A DNA stretch of 64,000 nucleotides from Escherichia phage ph0011: the sequence record OP557969.1, one strand, 5' to 3'. The translations under genes and the position numbers were made by a program. The notes beneath the pieces are model-generated. The model did not search any database and was not told where the DNA came from. It worked only from the letters and a program-made list of their open reading frames with translations. Of the stretch, positions 1 through 51,700 are shown piece after piece; within the stretch, counting starts at the first letter, position 1; each line of letters opens with the position of its first letter.

Positions 1-3278
<3,278 letters not shown>

Positions 3279-6959: not shown

Positions 6960-9539
6960 ATGAAAATTTGTAAGTTAACTTTATTGGATGAGGTGAATTG
7001 TAAATTTGAGGGACTAGATCCCTCAATTCGACAAAAGATGATTCGTGCAACTGAATATGTGCTACCATATGCAAAGTTTACACCAGCAGGTCGTATTGGG
7101 CGTTGGGATGGTAAAGTACAATTCATGAACTTAGGTGGAAGCACATACTTTCATATGCTTGATAAACTTTTACCTATTCTTGACGAAGCTAATATTGATA
7201 TTGAATTAGAAGATCATAGACTAAATTACGGTTTCGAATTTGAACCAATTGATGAAAATATTTTTAGCGATGTTGTTTTTGGTCCTGGACACCACATGGA
7301 AGGTAAAAGTATTATCCTACGTGAACATCAGGTAAATGCAGTAAATTCGTGTTTAGCTAACCCACATGGGTTGGTTCTGGCAGCAACTGGTGCAGGAAAA
7401 GCCCAGCCACTTGATGAACCAGTTCTTACCATTAATGGATGGAAACGAATGGGTGACATAAAAGTTGGCGATATAGTAAAATGTCCTGATGGAACAAATG
7501 CTCCCGTCCTTGGTGTATATCCACAGGGAATTAAACCAACAGTACGAATGACATTCTCGGATGGACGAAGTGTCGAATGTTGTGATGAACATTTATGGAA
7601 TATATATAGTATTGCTGGTGAAAAAAACCCTGAAAAACGATGGAGAAACCTTTCTGTTAAAGAAATCATTGAATTACAAAATAAACAAAAACGTCCAGTA
7701 TATATTAAAACAATCACTGGTGATATTTTTGAAGAAAAAGAATTACCAATACATCCATATATTTTAGGTGTATTACTCGGTGATGGATGTTTAAGAAATG
7801 GTAATATAATGTTATCAAGTTCAGATGAATTTGTTATTGATAAGGTATCTTCATTATTACCTGATGGTTATATTATCAAGAAAAAACAATCATCAAAATA
7901 TGATTATAGTATTGTCATGGATGATACAAAAAAGAAAGAATATTTATGTAAAAATAATAAAGAAAGATATAACGAACTTAGGGTTATTTTGGAAGAACTT
8001 GGAATTTATAATAAGTATTCATATGAAAAGTTTATCCCTGAAATTTACAAAATGTCATCAATTGAACAACGTCTGCAACTCATTCAAGGATTAATTGACA
8101 CGGATGGTTATGTTGATAAAAGATTAAAAAACGGAAAGTCCCGAAATGTGGTGGAATTTTGTAGTACATCAGAAAAATTGGTTGATGATTTGAAAGATAT
8201 AATGAATAGTTTAGGTGGTTACGGTATTAAAAAATCTAAACAAACTTATTATACCTATGCAGGGGTAAAACAAAAAGGTCGCCCAAGTTTTAAAATGAGA
8301 ATTGATTATAATAATCTTAATGCCTTGGCTAGTTTACCTCGCAAAAAAGACTTTTTATATTCAGAAAGAAATCGTGTTGAAAATAAACTAAAAATTGAAA
8401 AAATTGAATATATTGAAGATAAAGAATGTCAATGTATCTATATTGATCATCCAGAACATCTATATATTACCAGAGATTATATCGTAACACACAATACAAT
8501 TATTTGTGCTGCTTTGGCGAAATCGGTACAAAAATATGGACGTTCTGTTATCATTGTCCCCAGCACTGACCTAGTACAACAAACATATGATGATTACATT
8601 ATGTGTGGATTAGATGCTGGTATGTTCTATGGTGCACAGAAAGATTTTGGTCATCAACATACTATTACTACTTGGCAATCATTTAACTCTCTATGGAAGA
8701 AAACCAAAAAAGGTGAAATTGAATTAACAGAACAAGACGTAAATGATTTTATTGATGGGGTAGTTTGTGTTATAGTTGATGAGTGTCAAGGTGCTGGTGG
8801 TGATGCATTAGTTCAAGTACTATCTAAAGTTATGAACAACGTACCATTGCGTTGGGGTCTTACTGGTACAATTCCGAAAGATCCGGTTGTTGCAGCGAAA
8901 ATCAAATGTAATGTTGGTGATGTTATATATAAAATCACTGCAAAGGAATTACAAGATAAAAAGATACTAAGTACATGTAATGTGAATTGCATTAAACTAA
9001 AAAGTAGTATGAAGTTTGCATCATATGCTGAAGAGTTGAAATACTTAGTAACTGACAGAGATAGAATGGCATATGTAGCGTCATTGATATCTGCGTTATC
9101 TGAATCAGGAAACACTTTAGTTTTAGTAGATAGACTTGAAGCAGGTGAGTTGCTATGTGAATTTTTAGGCATTCCCAAATCAGAATTCGTTCGTGGAGAA
9201 ACTAAAAAGAAAGATCGAGAATCATCTTATGGTGAAATTCGTTGGGCTGATAATAAAATACTTATTGCGACATACGGCGTTGCCAGTACTGGTATCAGTA
9301 TTTCAAGGCTATACAATGTAGTATTGATTGAACCTGGAAAAAGTTTCGTAAGAACTATACAATCAATCGGACGTGGATTACGCCGTGCTGAAGACAAAGA
9401 CCATGTTGAAATATATGACATTAGTGGTTCTAATAAGTATAGTGCAAAGCATTTACGTGAGCGTCTCGCTTACTATAAGGAAGCACAATATCCTCATACA
9501 GTAATAGACGTTAAAGATTGGGAAAACACAGCGGGATAA
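6960..9539 (+). CDS. uvsW: UvsW-like SF2 helicase interrupted by an in-frame intein
   Basis: Extein motifs: Walker A ATGAGK|T split by the intein, DECQ box, GLTGT, QSIGRGLRR (motif VI). Confidence 0.7.
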   Translation: MKICKLTLLDEVNCKFEGLDPSIRQKMIRATEYVLPYAKFTPAGRIGRWDGKVQFMNLGGSTYFHMLDKLLPILDEANIDIELEDHRLNYGFEFEPIDENIFSDVVFGPGHHMEGKSIILREHQVNAVNSCLANPHGLVLAATGAGKAQPLDEPVLTINGWKRMGDIKVGDIVKCPDGTNAPVLGVYPQGIKPTVRMTFSDGRSVECCDEHLWNIYSIAGEKNPEKRWRNLSVKEIIELQNKQKRPVYIKTITGDIFEEKELPIHPYILGVLLGDGCLRNGNIMLSSSDEFVIDKVSSLLPDGYIIKKKQSSKYDYSIVMDDTKKKEYLCKNNKERYNELRVILEELGIYNKYSYEKFIPEIYKMSSIEQRLQLIQGLIDTDGYVDKRLKNGKSRNVVEFCSTSEKLVDDLKDIMNSLGGYGIKKSKQTYYTYAGVKQKGRPSFKMRIDYNNLNALASLPRKKDFLYSERNRVENKLKIEKIEYIEDKECQCIYIDHPEHLYITRDYIVTHNTIICAALAKSVQKYGRSVIIVPSTDLVQQTYDDYIMCGLDAGMFYGAQKDFGHQHTITTWQSFNSLWKKTKKGEIELTEQDVNDFIDGVVCVIVDECQGAGGDALVQVLSKVMNNVPLRWGLTGTIPKDPVVAAKIKCNVGDVIYKITAKELQDKKILSTCNVNCIKLKSSMKFASYAEELKYLVTDRDRMAYVASLISALSESGNTLVLVDRLEAGELLCEFLGIPKSEFVRGETKKKDRESSYGEIRWADNKILIATYGVASTGISISRLYNVVLIEPGKSFVRTIQSIGRGLRRAEDKDHVEIYDISGSNKYSAKHLRERLAYYKEAQYPHTVIDVKDWENTAG
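7401..8495 (+). mobile_element. Intein (365 aa) with LAGLIDADG homing-endonuclease domain inside the helicase P-loop
   Basis: Begins right after GAGK; LAGLIDADG-like LLGDGCL and LIDTDGYVD; ends IVTHN (N at 8493-8495) followed by extein T; length is a multiple of 3. Confidence 0.75.
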
Positions 9540-9552
9540 TCCCGCTGTTTAT
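9528..9552 (+). terminator. Terminator hairpin overlapping the uvsW stop codon
   Basis: acagcggga-taa-tcccgctgt; the stop codon lies in the loop; followed by ttatg. Confidence 0.55.
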
Positions 9553-13350: not shown

Positions 13351-13392
13351 ATTAGTTCCATAAATATTAGTATAAATTTATACCTATTATTT

Positions 13393-14385
13393 ATGGAAGG
13401 AAAAACTATGGCTCATCACGGCGTGTTTATGTACCCTTATAATCAGGAAGTATCATTGGGCAATTTTAATATGCCATATAGCAATGAAAAACTAACTATA
13501 TATAAAGGGGCAAATAATAATTTATCTTTTACTGTTCACAACGCTGATGGAAAGTATACTTTATTGAAAGAAAATGAATATCTTACATTTATGATTTTTG
13601 ATGTACGAAATAATACTAAACTATTTGATGTTGTTTTGGAAAAACAAGAACCAAGTTGGCTATCCGAAAGCGGTCAGGCCCGACAAACATTGGGAAATAA
13701 AAAGAAAGTATATTATGGATGTATTGTTCCAGCAGGTGTTATCCAAGATACCAGTCCTGGTTCCAAATATAGATGGAGTATCACTAAAGTAACAATGGAC
13801 GGTTCACTTGTAGAACCAACGCAATATCTATATACAGGTATGAACTATGAAGCATCAGCAGAGTTAATTATTTCAGACCAAGCTGTACCTGTATTTGTCC
13901 CTAGTACTGAAATATCTGTCAACCAAAATTCTGCATGGACGACTATTAAGCGTTTATATCATGAGCCTATTGGTAATGGTATGATTGGGGAATATGATAT
14001 TCTTGCATCAACACCCCTCCCTGCACAAATGCAGTTTGGATTGGTTGATGGATTGAGTAGTATAGCAATCTATTTTGATAAATTTATTGGTAGGATACAG
14101 CTTCAAGGGTGTTTGTGTAATGACGTACCAAATGATAATGAAAACTATAAATGGTTTATTATTAAATTAGATGGAAAGGATTATATTGAAAATGGGGTGG
14201 ATGTGGAAGGATTTCCAGAAGAACTCGATGGAATTGAAGCATTTAATTTTAAAGGAAATTATATGTGGTTAAGAATTGTAGTAGCTATTCATCCTAAAAC
14301 TGTTCCAGTACCATATGACTATGCTGCTGTGAGAAAAGTGTATGACCCTTTCTTAACTGTACCTAAAATTTTGATTCGCAGGTGA
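13393..14385 (+). CDS. Hypothetical protein (about 330 aa)
   Basis: ORF; in-frame ATGs at 13393 and 13408, the latter preceded by GGAAGG. Confidence 0.55.
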   Translation: MEGKTMAHHGVFMYPYNQEVSLGNFNMPYSNEKLTIYKGANNNLSFTVHNADGKYTLLKENEYLTFMIFDVRNNTKLFDVVLEKQEPSWLSESGQARQTLGNKKKVYYGCIVPAGVIQDTSPGSKYRWSITKVTMDGSLVEPTQYLYTGMNYEASAELIISDQAVPVFVPSTEISVNQNSAWTTIKRLYHEPIGNGMIGEYDILASTPLPAQMQFGLVDGLSSIAIYFDKFIGRIQLQGCLCNDVPNDNENYKWFIIKLDGKDYIENGVDVEGFPEELDGIEAFNFKGNYMWLRIVVAIHPKTVPVPYDYAAVRKVYDPFLTVPKILIRR

Positions 14386-14411
14386 GACAAAACCCGAAGT
14401 TGTGCTATAAT
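14384..14411 (+). promoter_or_regulatory. Promoter-like element GAGACA-N16-TGcTATAAT upstream of primase
   Basis: Same architecture as the elements at 3251 and 28164. Confidence 0.5.
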
Positions 14412-14440
14412 CATTTGTAAGAAAAGACAAGGATTAACTT

Positions 14441-35794: not shown

Positions 35795-35805
35795 AATATA
35801 AACTT

Positions 35806-37973
<2,168 letters not shown>

Positions 37974-38797: not shown

Positions 38798-38824
38798 AGA
38801 CAATAATCACATTGGTGATACAAT
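38797..38824 (+). promoter_or_regulatory. Promoter-like element GAGACA-N16-TGaTACAAT upstream of topoisomerase
   Basis: Same spacing as the other copies of the motif. Confidence 0.4.
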
Positions 38825-38858
38825 GTTTTGTGACAAAGAGACATGATAAGGAATTCAA

Positions 38859-42296: not shown

Positions 42297-42328
42297 GGAA
42301 GACCCAATGGGTCTTCCTTGTCCTTTAT
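42297..42328 (+). terminator. Rho-independent terminator
   Basis: ggaagaccc-aat-gggtcttcc perfect 9-bp stem, T-rich tail. Confidence 0.6.
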
Positions 42329-42346
42329 ATAAATAATCTATAGATA

Positions 42347-44767
42347 ATGGTAGCTTGGCTATGGAGAATTACAATGACAACTTTTACCCCACGTTGGGAT
42401 ATAAAAGCCGATGCTCGATATATACAAGAAGGACAAGACATTCTTTTGCGTTTGAGTATCAACAAAAATAGCACAACAGATGCTAGTTATGTATTAAATG
42501 AAGATGAATACTTAGAGATGATTCTTACAATACAATGCTTGGATAGTTCAGGTGCAGTATTTGAGCCAGAATCACATTATACTTTTTTTGTGGGTAATGA
42601 TGAAAACAGTTTTATACCCATTTCTGAAGGAACTACTGGAAATAAATTGGTAAATGGGAAACATAAATGTAAAATTAGTAAAACACAATTTAACTTATCA
42701 GGCAGTACTAATAGTGAAGATATATATTTTATAAAAATTCATTGTAAAAATAACGGAACATTCAACAATACCGAAATTATCAATTTTTATTTACAGGCAG
42801 TAAATGTGATGTATTTTGGTAATATTGCACCTAGTGGTGTGTTGGGAACAACTGACGCATCAGTAACATATGATAGCCAGGAAGTTTGGGTTACACCTGG
42901 TGTAGAGATTGGTGATGATAAAAAACCATACTGCATCGGGGATGTTGATTATGGTTCTAACAGTACATTGTTTGTACAAGGATTTGGAAGAAGACGACCT
43001 TTTATATTTGGGACTGACACTACTCTTGATTTCACCCCACGAGTATTCTACCCAGCTTATAGATTGCTTGATATGGATATATCGGAAGTTCCACAGAATC
43101 ACATCACAAAGGATTATGCCGTTTTTAAACCAGCACAAACTGTATGGCCTATTTCGGGTATAAACAAAGAAGTTAAAGTTAACATTCAAAACAAAAACGG
43201 AAGCACAATTGATACTGGAATGATTTTCAACCCAAATGGTCAATTACTTCAAACATTTTTATACGAATCTGAAGCATGTGACGCATATTTTAAGGTTGAG
43301 ATTGTAGACATTTTAAGTACTTATGTAGATGATAGTGAGAGATTTGCAATAAATCAACGTTACAAAGCATATCAAATGTGGGTATGTCCAGAAGACATAG
43401 ACACTATATATTCAATCTCTGATAAACCATTACCAAATCATTTGTACCAATTAAAAGATAATATAGTTTATCCATATGTAATTAGTGGTGAGTATGACGA
43501 TGGCACACTTAAGCCTGTATATGATAGTAGTGATTGGATAGATTTAGGTTATTACGATCCAACTCTTGGTGAAAATATCATTGGAATGCAAAAAATATTC
43601 AGGGTATTAGTTAATGCAGAAGAAGGGAATAACATAAACTTCATAACTGAGAGTGACTTAGGAACCATTCATGTTGGTGAATACTTTGGGAATAGCGTCT
43701 ATCCTAAGATAGAAACTGATAGTACAAGTCAGGTTTCTTATATATTAGATGGTGGTGATGATATTAGAAAATATGGAATGGACTTAACACCAGATGGTTA
43801 TCTAGTAGGAACTGCATTTGCTAAAAGTGTGGATTTTAGTGCTAATGATGATATTAAACTTTCATTTTACGTTAAAGCATTCAGTTCTGAAGGTGGTGAG
43901 GCAAGAAAATTATTTAATCTTAAAATCATAAGAGGTTTTGGGCAAAATTATTTAAGTGCACATGTTCTACCATCTGTTTCTTTTGAAAGAGATTGGTTTA
44001 AATGTATTAGTACTTCATCATTTACTAACCAATTATTTTTCCGTCAATCCGATGATAGATATGGTCTTCAAAAAGTACCAAAAATGCTATTGAAAGAAAA
44101 TTTTCTAAGTCAAACGTACCCATACACCAATCTTTCTGATATTAAGAAAGTATTACGAAAGAGTATTGTTGATACAAACGGAACCACTATTCCGAATGGT
44201 AAATTTAAAATGGTAATGGGTAATTATAAATTGTTATCAGCACTTGACAATCAAGGAAATTTACAATATGATTTATTGTATCGTGAAGTTTTACCTGAAG
44301 GTTCGTTGGTGTCAGTGTCTAAAAATCCACGCCAGTACACACAAATTGACAATGGCCTACTGGGTGAACTGTTTGGTTTACGACAAAACATATTCAAAGC
44401 AATTGGTGAAGATACAACCAACTTGGTCAAAGATCCTACAGATTTACAAAACCGTGGTATGTATGTTGATGCTATACCTAGTGTTAGTGATGAGATGCTT
44501 GATACTGTTCCTAGGTTTATGAATCATCCCTATATTGAAAATAACCTACAGAAAAAATTCATGCCTATAATTCCAGTTGCATATTGTCTGCCAGGCAAAG
44601 GTGAAGCATTTTTCAACACTTTACTACAGAATAATGAACATGGTACAATGGTCGGTCTAGAATTTGAAATTACATCGGTGGAGTTTGGGTATTTTTCACA
44701 TGAATCAGATAATTATGTACCTGATACATTTGTAATTACATTACCAAACAATAACATAGGAGTTTAA
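42347..44767 (+). CDS. Hypothetical large protein (about 800 aa)
   Basis: Long ORF; start may be the ATG at 42374 (MTTFTP); no motif recognised. Confidence 0.55.
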   Translation: MVAWLWRITMTTFTPRWDIKADARYIQEGQDILLRLSINKNSTTDASYVLNEDEYLEMILTIQCLDSSGAVFEPESHYTFFVGNDENSFIPISEGTTGNKLVNGKHKCKISKTQFNLSGSTNSEDIYFIKIHCKNNGTFNNTEIINFYLQAVNVMYFGNIAPSGVLGTTDASVTYDSQEVWVTPGVEIGDDKKPYCIGDVDYGSNSTLFVQGFGRRRPFIFGTDTTLDFTPRVFYPAYRLLDMDISEVPQNHITKDYAVFKPAQTVWPISGINKEVKVNIQNKNGSTIDTGMIFNPNGQLLQTFLYESEACDAYFKVEIVDILSTYVDDSERFAINQRYKAYQMWVCPEDIDTIYSISDKPLPNHLYQLKDNIVYPYVISGEYDDGTLKPVYDSSDWIDLGYYDPTLGENIIGMQKIFRVLVNAEEGNNINFITESDLGTIHVGEYFGNSVYPKIETDSTSQVSYILDGGDDIRKYGMDLTPDGYLVGTAFAKSVDFSANDDIKLSFYVKAFSSEGGEARKLFNLKIIRGFGQNYLSAHVLPSVSFERDWFKCISTSSFTNQLFFRQSDDRYGLQKVPKMLLKENFLSQTYPYTNLSDIKKVLRKSIVDTNGTTIPNGKFKMVMGNYKLLSALDNQGNLQYDLLYREVLPEGSLVSVSKNPRQYTQIDNGLLGELFGLRQNIFKAIGEDTTNLVKDPTDLQNRGMYVDAIPSVSDEMLDTVPRFMNHPYIENNLQKKFMPIIPVAYCLPGKGEAFFNTLLQNNEHGTMVGLEFEITSVEFGYFSHESDNYVPDTFVITLPNNNIGV

Positions 44768-45080: not shown

Positions 45081-45558
45081 TGTGAAATGTAATCTTAATG
45101 CAGTTGTTTATGCAATCAACTGTGGTGCAGATATCCAGTACTTACAATTACAGGAAATCGATGAACCTGAAAGGTTAAAATTCAATGATAACTGTAAAAA
45201 ATTTGGTTTAGAGCAACGTATGCTGGATTATACCATTGAACATGATAAAAATCATGAACTTTGGCGTTATGATCCAGTATATGATAATATAAATCTACGT
45301 GACTTTTTTTTACAAAAGTGTACATCTGATGAAGCACGAACACGTGTTGAGTATGAGCTTGAATTATATGAATATTATAATATGACAAAACTATTAAGAT
45401 GTATGATCTGGCTCGTTGATTACATGGAAGAACATGAAATCTTTTGGGGTCTGGGGCGTGGAAGCTCTGTTGCATCATATTGCTTATACTTGATTGGACT
45501 ACATATGGTAGATTCATTGAAGTATGACCTTGATGTGAACGAATTTTTGAAATGGTAG
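45040..45558 (+). CDS. Hypothetical protein (172 aa)
   Basis: ORF; start uncertain. Confidence 0.45.
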   Translation: MKVQGNRFISPNGDVKCNLNAVVYAINCGADIQYLQLQEIDEPERLKFNDNCKKFGLEQRMLDYTIEHDKNHELWRYDPVYDNINLRDFFLQKCTSDEARTRVEYELELYEYYNMTKLLRCMIWLVDYMEEHEIFWGLGRGSSVASYCLYLIGLHMVDSLKYDLDVNEFLKW

Positions 45559-45566
45559 ATAAACAT

Positions 45567-45600
45567 GTGATATAATGTGTATTGTAGTTATTATATCACA
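45567..45600 (+). promoter_or_regulatory. Extended -10 (TGaTATAAT) embedded in a perfect 11-bp inverted repeat
   Basis: tgtgatataat ... attatatcaca separated by 12 nt, just upstream of the ORF at 45623. Confidence 0.45.
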
Positions 45601-45622
45601 CATAAAATAAAAGGATTTTGAT

Positions 45623-45967
45623 ATGTCTAAACATACAACTTATCGTGGTACAACAATTGACATGGATATGCTCAAGTACCAAAATCAACACCAGGTAGCA
45701 TTGGGTAATGCAAATCTAAATGCACGTGGTGATAAAATTGGCTCAGGTGGAACAATTATCAAAACTCGTGAAGAGTTACTTCAAGAAAAAGAACGTGAAA
45801 TGCAAATTCCTGATTTTATTCCTGAACATCAACTTCATAGTACTGAACATAGTACTGAAGAAGTATGGGATGATGAAAGCTTTGAAGTTATGCCCGAAGT
45901 AAAAGAAGCTGAGGTTTCTGAAGAAAAGAAAGCCCCACGTCGAGCAAGAACTAAAGAACAGGAGTGA
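45623..45967 (+). CDS. Hypothetical protein (114 aa)
   Basis: ORF with AAGGA RBS. Confidence 0.5.
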   Translation: MSKHTTYRGTTIDMDMLKYQNQHQVALGNANLNARGDKIGSGGTIIKTREELLQEKEREMQIPDFIPEHQLHSTEHSTEEVWDDESFEVMPEVKEAEVSEEKKAPRRARTKEQE

Positions 45968-46302
45968 TGTGTCAAATGACTAATAAAGTAATGACTGCAT
46001 GTAAAGGTAAAGTTCTAGTAACTGATCTGGAACATGGTGAACGTAAAACAGCAGGTGGGATCGTTTTAACGAACGATGATGGCAAAATCAGGGGCATTCG
46101 TTCTCGCTGGGCAAAAGTCTATTCGGTCGGTGAAGACATTACTGATATTAAAGAAGGACAATGGATTTTAATCGATCACGGTCGATGGTCAAGAACTATT
46201 GAAGTTGATGGCATTGAATTGAACTTGGTTGATTACCCTGCTGCTGTTAGTTTAGTATCAGATGAAGATCCAAGAACAAAAATGCTAACCTTTGGACGTT
46301 AA
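45964..46302 (+). CDS. 31: GroES-like co-chaperonin (T4 gp31-like)
   Basis: KGKVLVTDLEHGERKTAGGIVLT parallels GroES ([20 protein letters not shown]); length about 110 aa. Confidence 0.55.
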   Translation: MMCQMTNKVMTACKGKVLVTDLEHGERKTAGGIVLTNDDGKIRGIRSRWAKVYSVGEDITDIKEGQWILIDHGRWSRTIEVDGIELNLVDYPAAVSLVSDEDPRTKMLTFGR

Positions 46303-46359
46303 CAAAAAATCAATTGAAGCTCGGATAGAAATCTGGGCTTTTTATTTGGACAAAAAATA

Positions 46360-50408: not shown

Positions 50409-50486
50409 TTCATGTATTGACATATGGTGTACCAGTATGTATAATACCCACGTTATTTAAATTTTAATTGATTACGAGGTTTTATA

Positions 50487-51623: not shown

Positions 51624-51652
51624 TTGACTTGGATATGTGCTGAACGTATAAT
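51624..51652 (+). promoter_or_regulatory. Near-consensus sigma70 promoter TTGACT-N17-TATAAT
   Basis: ttgact 51624-51629; tataat 51647-51652; overlapping dyad gtgctg ... cagcac. Confidence 0.6.
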
Positions 51653-51700
51653 GTTTATCACTGAGCAGCACATCATATTAACTTAAACGAGGAACTCTCA

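Follow-up and report, generated by a model that had tools for sequence, protein, structure and literature searches.

The phage T4 genes e (lysozyme), 49, soc and I-TevI reportedly have an internal promoter located inside a hairpin, which only the read-through transcripts can fold. In the gene e/49 type, the 3′ arm of the hairpin is said to sequester the Shine-Dalgarno (SD) sequence or the start codon.

T4-type phages also contain promoter-early stem-loop cassettes (PeSLs; Arbiol et al. 2010, PMC2839356; Comeau et al. 2014, PMC4122927). Overlap of the stem-loop with the −10 box is one of its two commonest positions (PMC2839356), and PeSL stem-loops have been proposed to attenuate, or to form a boundary for, transcription arriving from upstream (PMC2839356, PMC4122927). 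For the jumbo phage CBB, a published promoter table (Buttimer et al. 2017, PMC5259590) gives TGAAACG as the consensus of 'Promoter 1' and describes a class of 'divergent RpoD-like' promoters upstream of replication-type genes, to which the promoter Porf_329 belongs.

Here we describe an inverted repeat that lies on a promoter of Escherichia phage ph0011 (OP557969.1), in a 64-kb stretch of DNA that we refer to as the window; our scans cover this window out of a genome of roughly 350 kb. We tentatively propose, with a confidence that falls somewhat short of even, that the element at 45566 is a composite of an ordinary-type jumbo-phage promoter and a stem-loop that is formed only in read-through RNA.

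The closest known kind is the PeSL. As in PeSLs, a sigma-70-like promoter is situated between an upstream stop codon and a downstream SD sequence and is joined with a stem-loop; the stem-loop again overlaps the −10, its 5′ arm being the extended −10; and several further promoters in the window bear overlapping stem-loops that are unrelated in sequence. PeSLs, however, are repeated, sequence-similar cassettes that lie in hyperplastic regions beside ORFans and mediate recombination, whereas the present element is single-copy in the 64 kb and lies in a core region with synteny, where different genera have kept it in the same place. G/C-rich stems that act as terminators are typical of PeSLs, in contrast to a stem with two G-C pairs and no U-tract here, and it is peculiar to this element that the −10 sequence itself makes up the whole 5′ arm. 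The likeness to T4 genes e and 49 is that the 5′ arm lies upstream of the predicted start of the internal promoter and that the two mRNA isoforms would differ in structure. The differences are that the 3′ arm ends 10 nt upstream of the SD sequence, leaving the ribosome site open, and that the temporal order is reversed, the upstream promoter being late and the internal one sigma-70-like. The element is accordingly a variant of the PeSL and of the T4 promoter-in-hairpin, not a member of either: it is not a repeated mobile cassette and does not sequester the ribosome site. With the CBB/GAP32 promoter class it shares the consensus TGAAACG ... TGnTATAAT, which its heptamer and left arm match together with the spacing; the CBB paper lists the promoter up to the −10 only and does not mention a downstream complement (PMC5259590).

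Layout of the locus

The window is about 89–92% identical to the Asteriusvirus jumbo phages PBECO4, 121Q and phAPEC6, its more distant kin being RaK2, GAP32, CBB and jumbo phages of Yersinia, Serratia and Erwinia. Nearly all of its genes are on the + strand. A terminator at 42297–42317 is followed by a late promoter, for which we used the consensus of the CBB-group literature (PMC5259590), a virion structural gene, a 103-aa gene, a DnaE fragment and the repeat; 3′ of the repeat come a 114-aa gene, a GroES/gp31-like co-chaperonin gene and a further terminator (Table 1). The position of the locus is syntenic across at least five genera. Profile matches of the downstream operon were to PHROG 931 ('head morphogenesis') and PHROG 14844.

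Table 1. Features of the locus, in order along the window
Feature	Position	Strand	Remark
T4-type late promoter motif TATAAATA	42328–42335	+	upstream of virion structural gene
Stand-alone DnaE (Pol III alpha) fragment, 172 aa	45040–45558	+	stop codon 7 nt before left arm
−35-like element TTGAAA (45547–45552), or phage-class heptamer TGAAATG (45548–45554)	45547–45554	+	
Left arm TGTGATATAAT	45566–45576	+	contains extended −10 TGaTATAAT, 45568–45576
Spacer (hairpin loop), 13 nt	45577–45589	+	holds predicted transcription start
Right arm ATTATATCACA	45590–45600	+	approximately +5 to +19 of the predicted transcript of this promoter
SD sequence AAGGA (45611–45615) and ATG (45623–45625) of the 114-aa gene	45611–45625	+	unpaired with the hairpin
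114-aa protein of unknown function	45623–45967	+	downstream operon, 45623–46302
GroES/gp31-like co-chaperonin	45964–46302	+	Pfam Cpn10, E = 3.4e-5
Intrinsic terminator closing the operon	46316–46341	+	terminator scan

Some features of the neighbouring genes deserve mention. The DnaE fragment matches only positions 16–95 of the 260-position PF07733 (Pol III alpha domain) and is 77–96% conserved in at least six jumbo-phage genera, with an invariant GLGRGSSV and a C-terminal DVNEFLKW. The 806-aa ORF probably starts at ATG 42374 and not at 42347, the PHROG profile aligning from residue 10; a GGAGGA just upstream of ATG 42374 was deduced by translating the ORF back, and with this start some 32 nt of leader would follow the late promoter. 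The late promoter word is under-represented in the window (5 occurrences against 11 expected), which is consistent with a functional signal being avoided.

Statistics of the inverted repeat

The preliminary description had noted a perfect 11-bp inverted repeat directly upstream of the gene at 45623. A repeat search of the window confirmed two 11-nt arms, TGTGATATAAT and ATTATATCACA, that are 100% complementary, the right arm ending 22 nt before the ATG. The repeat begins at 45566, one nucleotide earlier than described, and its spacer has 13 nt instead of 12.

The window has seven perfect inverted repeats whose arms reach 11 bp or more and whose loops span 3–30 nt, against 0.8 expected from dinucleotide shuffles. 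The arrangement TGTGATA-N0–30-TATCACA is expected 0.12 times per window and appeared at least once in 11 of 100 shuffles; the window holds no second TGTGATA...TATCACA site, the repeat being single-copy there. The 41-nt hairpin of the window folds at −11.1 kcal/mol, with a z score of only −1.3 against shuffles, and no Rfam covariance model matched anywhere in the window at the gathering score. One 11-bp repeat somewhere in 64 kb is thus unremarkable, and the window alone provides no proof of non-randomness. We take the repeat to be non-random because it sits on a conserved promoter and is retained in relatives.

Both the shuffle expectation and the modest z score of the window hairpin would suit what we regard as the main rival explanation, namely that the complementarity as such is without function, the left arm being kept as a promoter and the right arm for another reason, as a leader element or as a product of template switching ('quasi-palindrome correction'). 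We consider this rival somewhat unlikely on the basis of the comparisons with relatives described below.

The left arm as a promoter element

TTGAAA, an 18-nt spacer and TATAAT agree with the consensus at 11 of 12 positions and are supplemented by the TG. The −35-like element falls within the final codons of the upstream gene (F-L-K-W-stop). The same stretch can be read as the heptamer TGAAATG, a 16-nt gap and TATAAT (45571–45576), with TG at 45568–45569, which fits the class TGRAAYR-16-TATAAT. The spacing of heptamer, 16 nt and TATAAT is identical in Asteriusvirus, EJP2, Hallingskeid, Mimasvirus, Eneladusvirus and metagenomic relatives, and the CBB ortholog, Porf_329 (TGAAATGGTAAAAAAAATTATGGTATAAT), is included in the published promoter table (PMC5259590). 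Because of this conservation and the published motif list, we conclude that the left arm most likely serves as the extended −10 in a phage promoter that is conserved and belongs to the TGAAAYG-N16-TATAAT class with a preceding TG. The extended −10 had been seen correctly in the preliminary description, but rather than lying between the two arms it coincides with the left one. As judged by sequence, all relatives that have retained an intergenic promoter at the locus show this one conserved. In RaK2 the −35 was rebuilt after an insertion, and the 7t3-like group has a minimal intergenic region.

Words resembling TGTGATATAAT are enriched on the coding strand of the window (17 against 6.2 expected). 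A recurrent promoter class has TGnTATAAT at 3193, 3270, 14403, 28183, 32101 and 38816, with a purine-rich box [TC][GA]G[GA]AC[AG], often GGACAAAC, 16 nt upstream of the extended −10; this is apparently the phage's own version of the CBB/GAP32 TGAAACG class.

Standard sigma-70 geometry (7 ± 2 nt past the −10) would put the transcription start at about 45581–45586, within the loop. Since the predicted start lies in the loop, the promoter's own mRNA would be devoid of the left arm and unable to form the hairpin. The leader of an RNA begun at about 45583 was predicted to be unstructured (fold z +0.8). A sigma-dependent promoter-proximal pause at the −10-like TATTAT of the non-template strand was also considered and rejected, as the motif is not conserved in the PBECO4 type.

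The symmetry of the repeat raises the question of a second, face-to-face promoter on the − strand, which would send antisense RNA into the upstream gene or make RNA polymerases compete. Positions 45600–45590 indeed read TGTGATATAAT, a perfect extended −10. The relatives, however, have TATAAG, TATAAC, TATCTA or TACCTT at this place and have lost the critical last T; moreover, the − strand has no −35-like element, and there are no − strand genes nearby. We consider such a promoter highly improbable.

The hairpin in related phages

The right arm stays complementary to the left in 11 distinct relatives, with loops of 5 to 15 nt. The left arm is invariant in 10 of the 11 aligned relatives, the exception being the metagenomic sequence L037 with TACAAT, and in the right arm a core TATC.C is conserved while the adjoining loop and linker vary. 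Variation in the intergenic alignment is greatest in the loop, where substitutions and indels occur; indels are confined to it. Arm and loop lengths are 11 bp and 13 nt in the window, 10 and 14 in the PBECO4 type, 11 and 15 in UE-S1, 9 and 14 in fEgEco12, 9 and 5 in EJP2 and 7 and 8 in Hallingskeid. RNA folding gave −17.3 kcal/mol for UE-S1 (shuffle z −5.8), −14.9 for fEgEco12 (z −4.0), −11.9 for the PBECO4 type (z −3.7), −8.7 for EJP2 (z −5.4) and −7.9 for Hallingskeid (z −4.1). Inner extensions of the stem consist of G-C and G·U pairs, and their sequence differs among relatives. In none of the 11 cases was the + strand fold less stable than the − strand fold, and in six of them it was better by 3 to 7.6 kcal/mol.

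These observations bear on the proposal, made in the preliminary description, that the repeat is the site of a dimeric repressor. A phage or host repressor binding the two TGTGATA half-sites would occlude the −10, in keeping with a perfect 11-bp palindromic pair that overlaps it and with the confinement of the element to one promoter, as a gene-specific regulator would give. A dimer of fixed geometry calls for a fixed distance between half-sites, whereas the gaps between TGTGATA and TATCACA in orthologs are 21, 20, 23, 20, 7 and 8 nt. A range as wide as 7–23 nt rules out any dimer operator with fixed spacing. The stem extensions rely on G·U pairs, which are meaningful solely for a single-stranded nucleic acid of + polarity, and folding favours the + strand. 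The 64 kb contain no further site of this kind, and Pfam and PHROG profile searches found no DNA-binding domain in the neighbouring small proteins. We therefore hold the repressor proposal to be very unlikely. As for a CRP site (TGTGA...TCACA), we discarded it on account of its spacing, which is 25 nt here and 11–12 nt in EJP2 and Hallingskeid, never 6.

Extrusion of a cruciform or hairpin at the DNA level, driven by supercoiling, is another conceivable use of the repeat: the −10, located inside an AT-rich perfect repeat, would be hidden or exposed, making the promoter sensitive to topology. Short spacers favour cruciform extrusion, and the spacer of EJP2 has only 5 nt; most relatives have spacers of 13–15 nt, which disfavour it. 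Neither extensions that depend on G·U(T) pairs nor the asymmetry between strands is expected for a symmetrical structure, and we find this alternative decidedly improbable.

The same strand asymmetry is relevant to an intrinsic terminator serving − strand (antisense) transcription. On that strand a T-rich run follows the hairpin (TGTTTATCT here, TTTTTCT in EJP2, TTTTTTG in Hallingskeid), corresponding to the A-rich promoter spacer that precedes the left arm in all relatives. This A/T spacer tract is, however, a class-wide promoter feature; the − strand hairpins are the weaker ones, and genes on the − strand are absent to the right of the element. We give this explanation scarcely any credence.

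We then return to the possibility that the complementarity lacks a function of its own. It is in accordance with this possibility that in relatives the right arm and the SD sequence are a roughly constant 5–10 nt apart, as would suit a leader element, and that the hairpin is absent from the RaK2-type and 7t3-type relatives. A formal covariation count over the nine closest sequences, in which 90% of cells were paired, yielded no double-sided changes, with an uninformative shuffle control. The lack of strict covariation beyond L037 is due to the left arm, which its promoter function keeps frozen. Against the rival stand several observations. In EJP2 and Hallingskeid the right arm is only partly transcribed from the promoter, yet it is still complementary. 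The indels avoid the stem, the inner-stem extensions recur with different sequences, and the z scores lie between −3.7 and −5.8 in five relatives. Finally, L037 has a double change: its −10 TACAAT is matched by a partner TTGTA, so that a U-A pair has become C-G. This compensatory pair was obtained from independent folds, as the MAFFT alignment had put the L037 right arm out of register, and the L037 hairpin is weak (z −1.4). TH47, relative to fEgEco12, has U-A in place of a U·G pair. The composite of promoter and read-through stem-loop remains our tentative preference.

CBB itself has a downstream complement of only 4–5 bp. The palindrome GGTATAaTATACC of Mimasvirus and Eneladusvirus was discounted as covariation, since a GTA after the −10 is common to the class in CBB. 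Of the 18 TGnTA[TC]AAT sites in the window, only that at 45566 has a long repeat on its −10; the others have complements of at most 6 bp, save for one 8-bp case inside a gene.

A possible role in read-through RNA

According to the reading we favour, the promoter at 45547–45576 would drive the operon of the 114-aa protein and the GroES-like protein, its own transcripts beginning in the loop, carrying the right arm only and having an unstructured leader. RNA started at the late promoter TATAAATA (42328) would meet no terminator and would cross the intergenic region. In such read-through RNA, the −10 sequence would pair with its downstream complement. The resulting AU-rich hairpin would have 12 bp, with some 7 nt separating it from the stop codon on its 5′ side and some 10 nt from the SD sequence on its 3′ side. 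Only the read-through RNA can fold in this manner, because the predicted start, at about 45583, falls between the end of the −10 (45576) and the beginning of the right arm (45590); the hairpin would mark the read-through mRNA isoform and no other. A terminator scan found no terminator-like site between 42347 and 45566, the next one being at 46316. RNA containing the whole hairpin probably originates at the late promoter at 42328, while read-through itself is what we infer from this arrangement. In the literature we found neither transcription-start nor RNA-seq maps for Asteriusvirus or RaK2-like phages.

The most likely role of the hairpin would be that of an intercistronic boundary, which may act as a decay barrier, a processing site or a weak attenuator, as has been proposed for PeSL stem-loops. 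Masking of the SD sequence was seen in neither the 86-nt nor the 201-nt folds. In the 201-nt fold, which had a z score of −0.5, the stop-codon region and the start codon formed an outer pairing that was not conserved. Thus, of the other suggestion in the preliminary description, an RNA hairpin that sequesters the 5′ end, the hairpin on the + strand is the best reading and the sequestration is not supported, the SD sequence being open and the promoter's own RNA lacking the left arm.

The stem has two G-C pairs in 11 and is followed by CAUAAAAUAAAAGG, without a U-tract. With only two G-C pairs and no U-tract it should be a poor intrinsic terminator, and the terminator scan, which called terminators at 42297, 46316, 48246 and 50376, did not call this hairpin; an intrinsic terminator on the + strand was rejected for want of the U-tract. 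A stem of 12–15 bp is short for a typical RNase III substrate. If the hairpin acts as a processing site, processed ends are to be expected at its base or in CAUAAAAUAAAA.

A bolder version of the proposal, which we deem unlikely, is that the same 11 nt serve in double-stranded DNA as an extended −10 and in late read-through RNA as the 5′ arm of an isoform-specific hairpin that is read by a phage or host factor, setting how strongly the gp31-like co-chaperonin operon is expressed in the late phase relative to the upstream structural genes. The factor would act through processing, a decay barrier or factor-dependent attenuation, and the locus would then represent a conserved temporal switch made from the promoter sequence itself. 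As a purely speculative extension, the 5′ end of the promoter's RNA could act back on the open complex from which it arose, being complementary to the −10 on the non-template strand.

If the hairpin acts on the read-through RNA, one operon, which includes a GroES-like head-morphogenesis co-chaperonin, would give two differently behaving mRNA isoforms at no cost of extra sequence, and the logic of the PeSL and of the T4 promoter within a hairpin would extend to jumbo phages of the RaK2/PBECO4 type. This opens no long-standing question and would not greatly surprise a specialist. For annotation, the locus marks a well-conserved promoter and cautions against naming such palindromes operators.

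Other promoter-linked hairpins

We assign a higher prior to the element at 45566 because this phage group uses transcript-isoform-specific hairpins elsewhere. Two further sites in the window fit the T4 gene e-type promoter-in-hairpin paradigm fully. At 35805–35865, a perfect 18-bp inverted repeat, TAAAAAAACTCCAAGATT / AATCTTGGAGTTTTTTTA, folds at −24.5 kcal/mol (z −6.2); its 25-nt loop holds the late-promoter-like GATAAATA (35831–35838), and its 3′ arm contains the SD sequence GGAG of the structural gene at 35868. This site looks like a terminator, a gene e-type promoter-in-hairpin and a ribosome site combined, and it is kept in the CBB ortholog with compensatory changes. At 13356–13398, an 11-bp inverted repeat, TTCCATAAATA / TATTTATGGAA, folds at −15.6 kcal/mol (z −3.4), with a late-promoter-like ATAAATA in the 5′ arm and TATAAAT in the loop. 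Its 3′ arm abuts the SD sequence (GGAAGGA) of a structural gene, the start of which is probably ATG 13409, and CBB has a similar hairpin, also with compensatory changes.

Five other sites are, on the basis of predicted structures, PeSL-like composites. A 10-bp GC-rich repeat at 9528–9548 lies at the −35 of the promoter at 9552, and ACATTG/CAATGT at 38809–38826 lies on a −10. At 50417–50445, the −35 of a consensus promoter pairs with its −10 in the predicted fold only, the repeat search having found no repeat there. At 51635–51673, ATGTGCTG/CAGCACAT enclose the −10 and start site of TTGACT-17-TATAAT, and at 14407–14440 the predicted fold pairs the end of the −10 with the SD sequence.

Comparable arrangements were observed in the relatives. 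In RaK2 (828–860 of its locus sequence, L009), a 9-bp repeat, TGATTTTTG/CAAAAATCA, spans the rebuilt −35. In the CBB record (L045), ACGGGTAC/GTACCCGT enclose the spacer and −10 of Porf_265 (191483–191520), and a strong terminator-like hairpin lies directly 3′ of Porf_262 (187472–187540).
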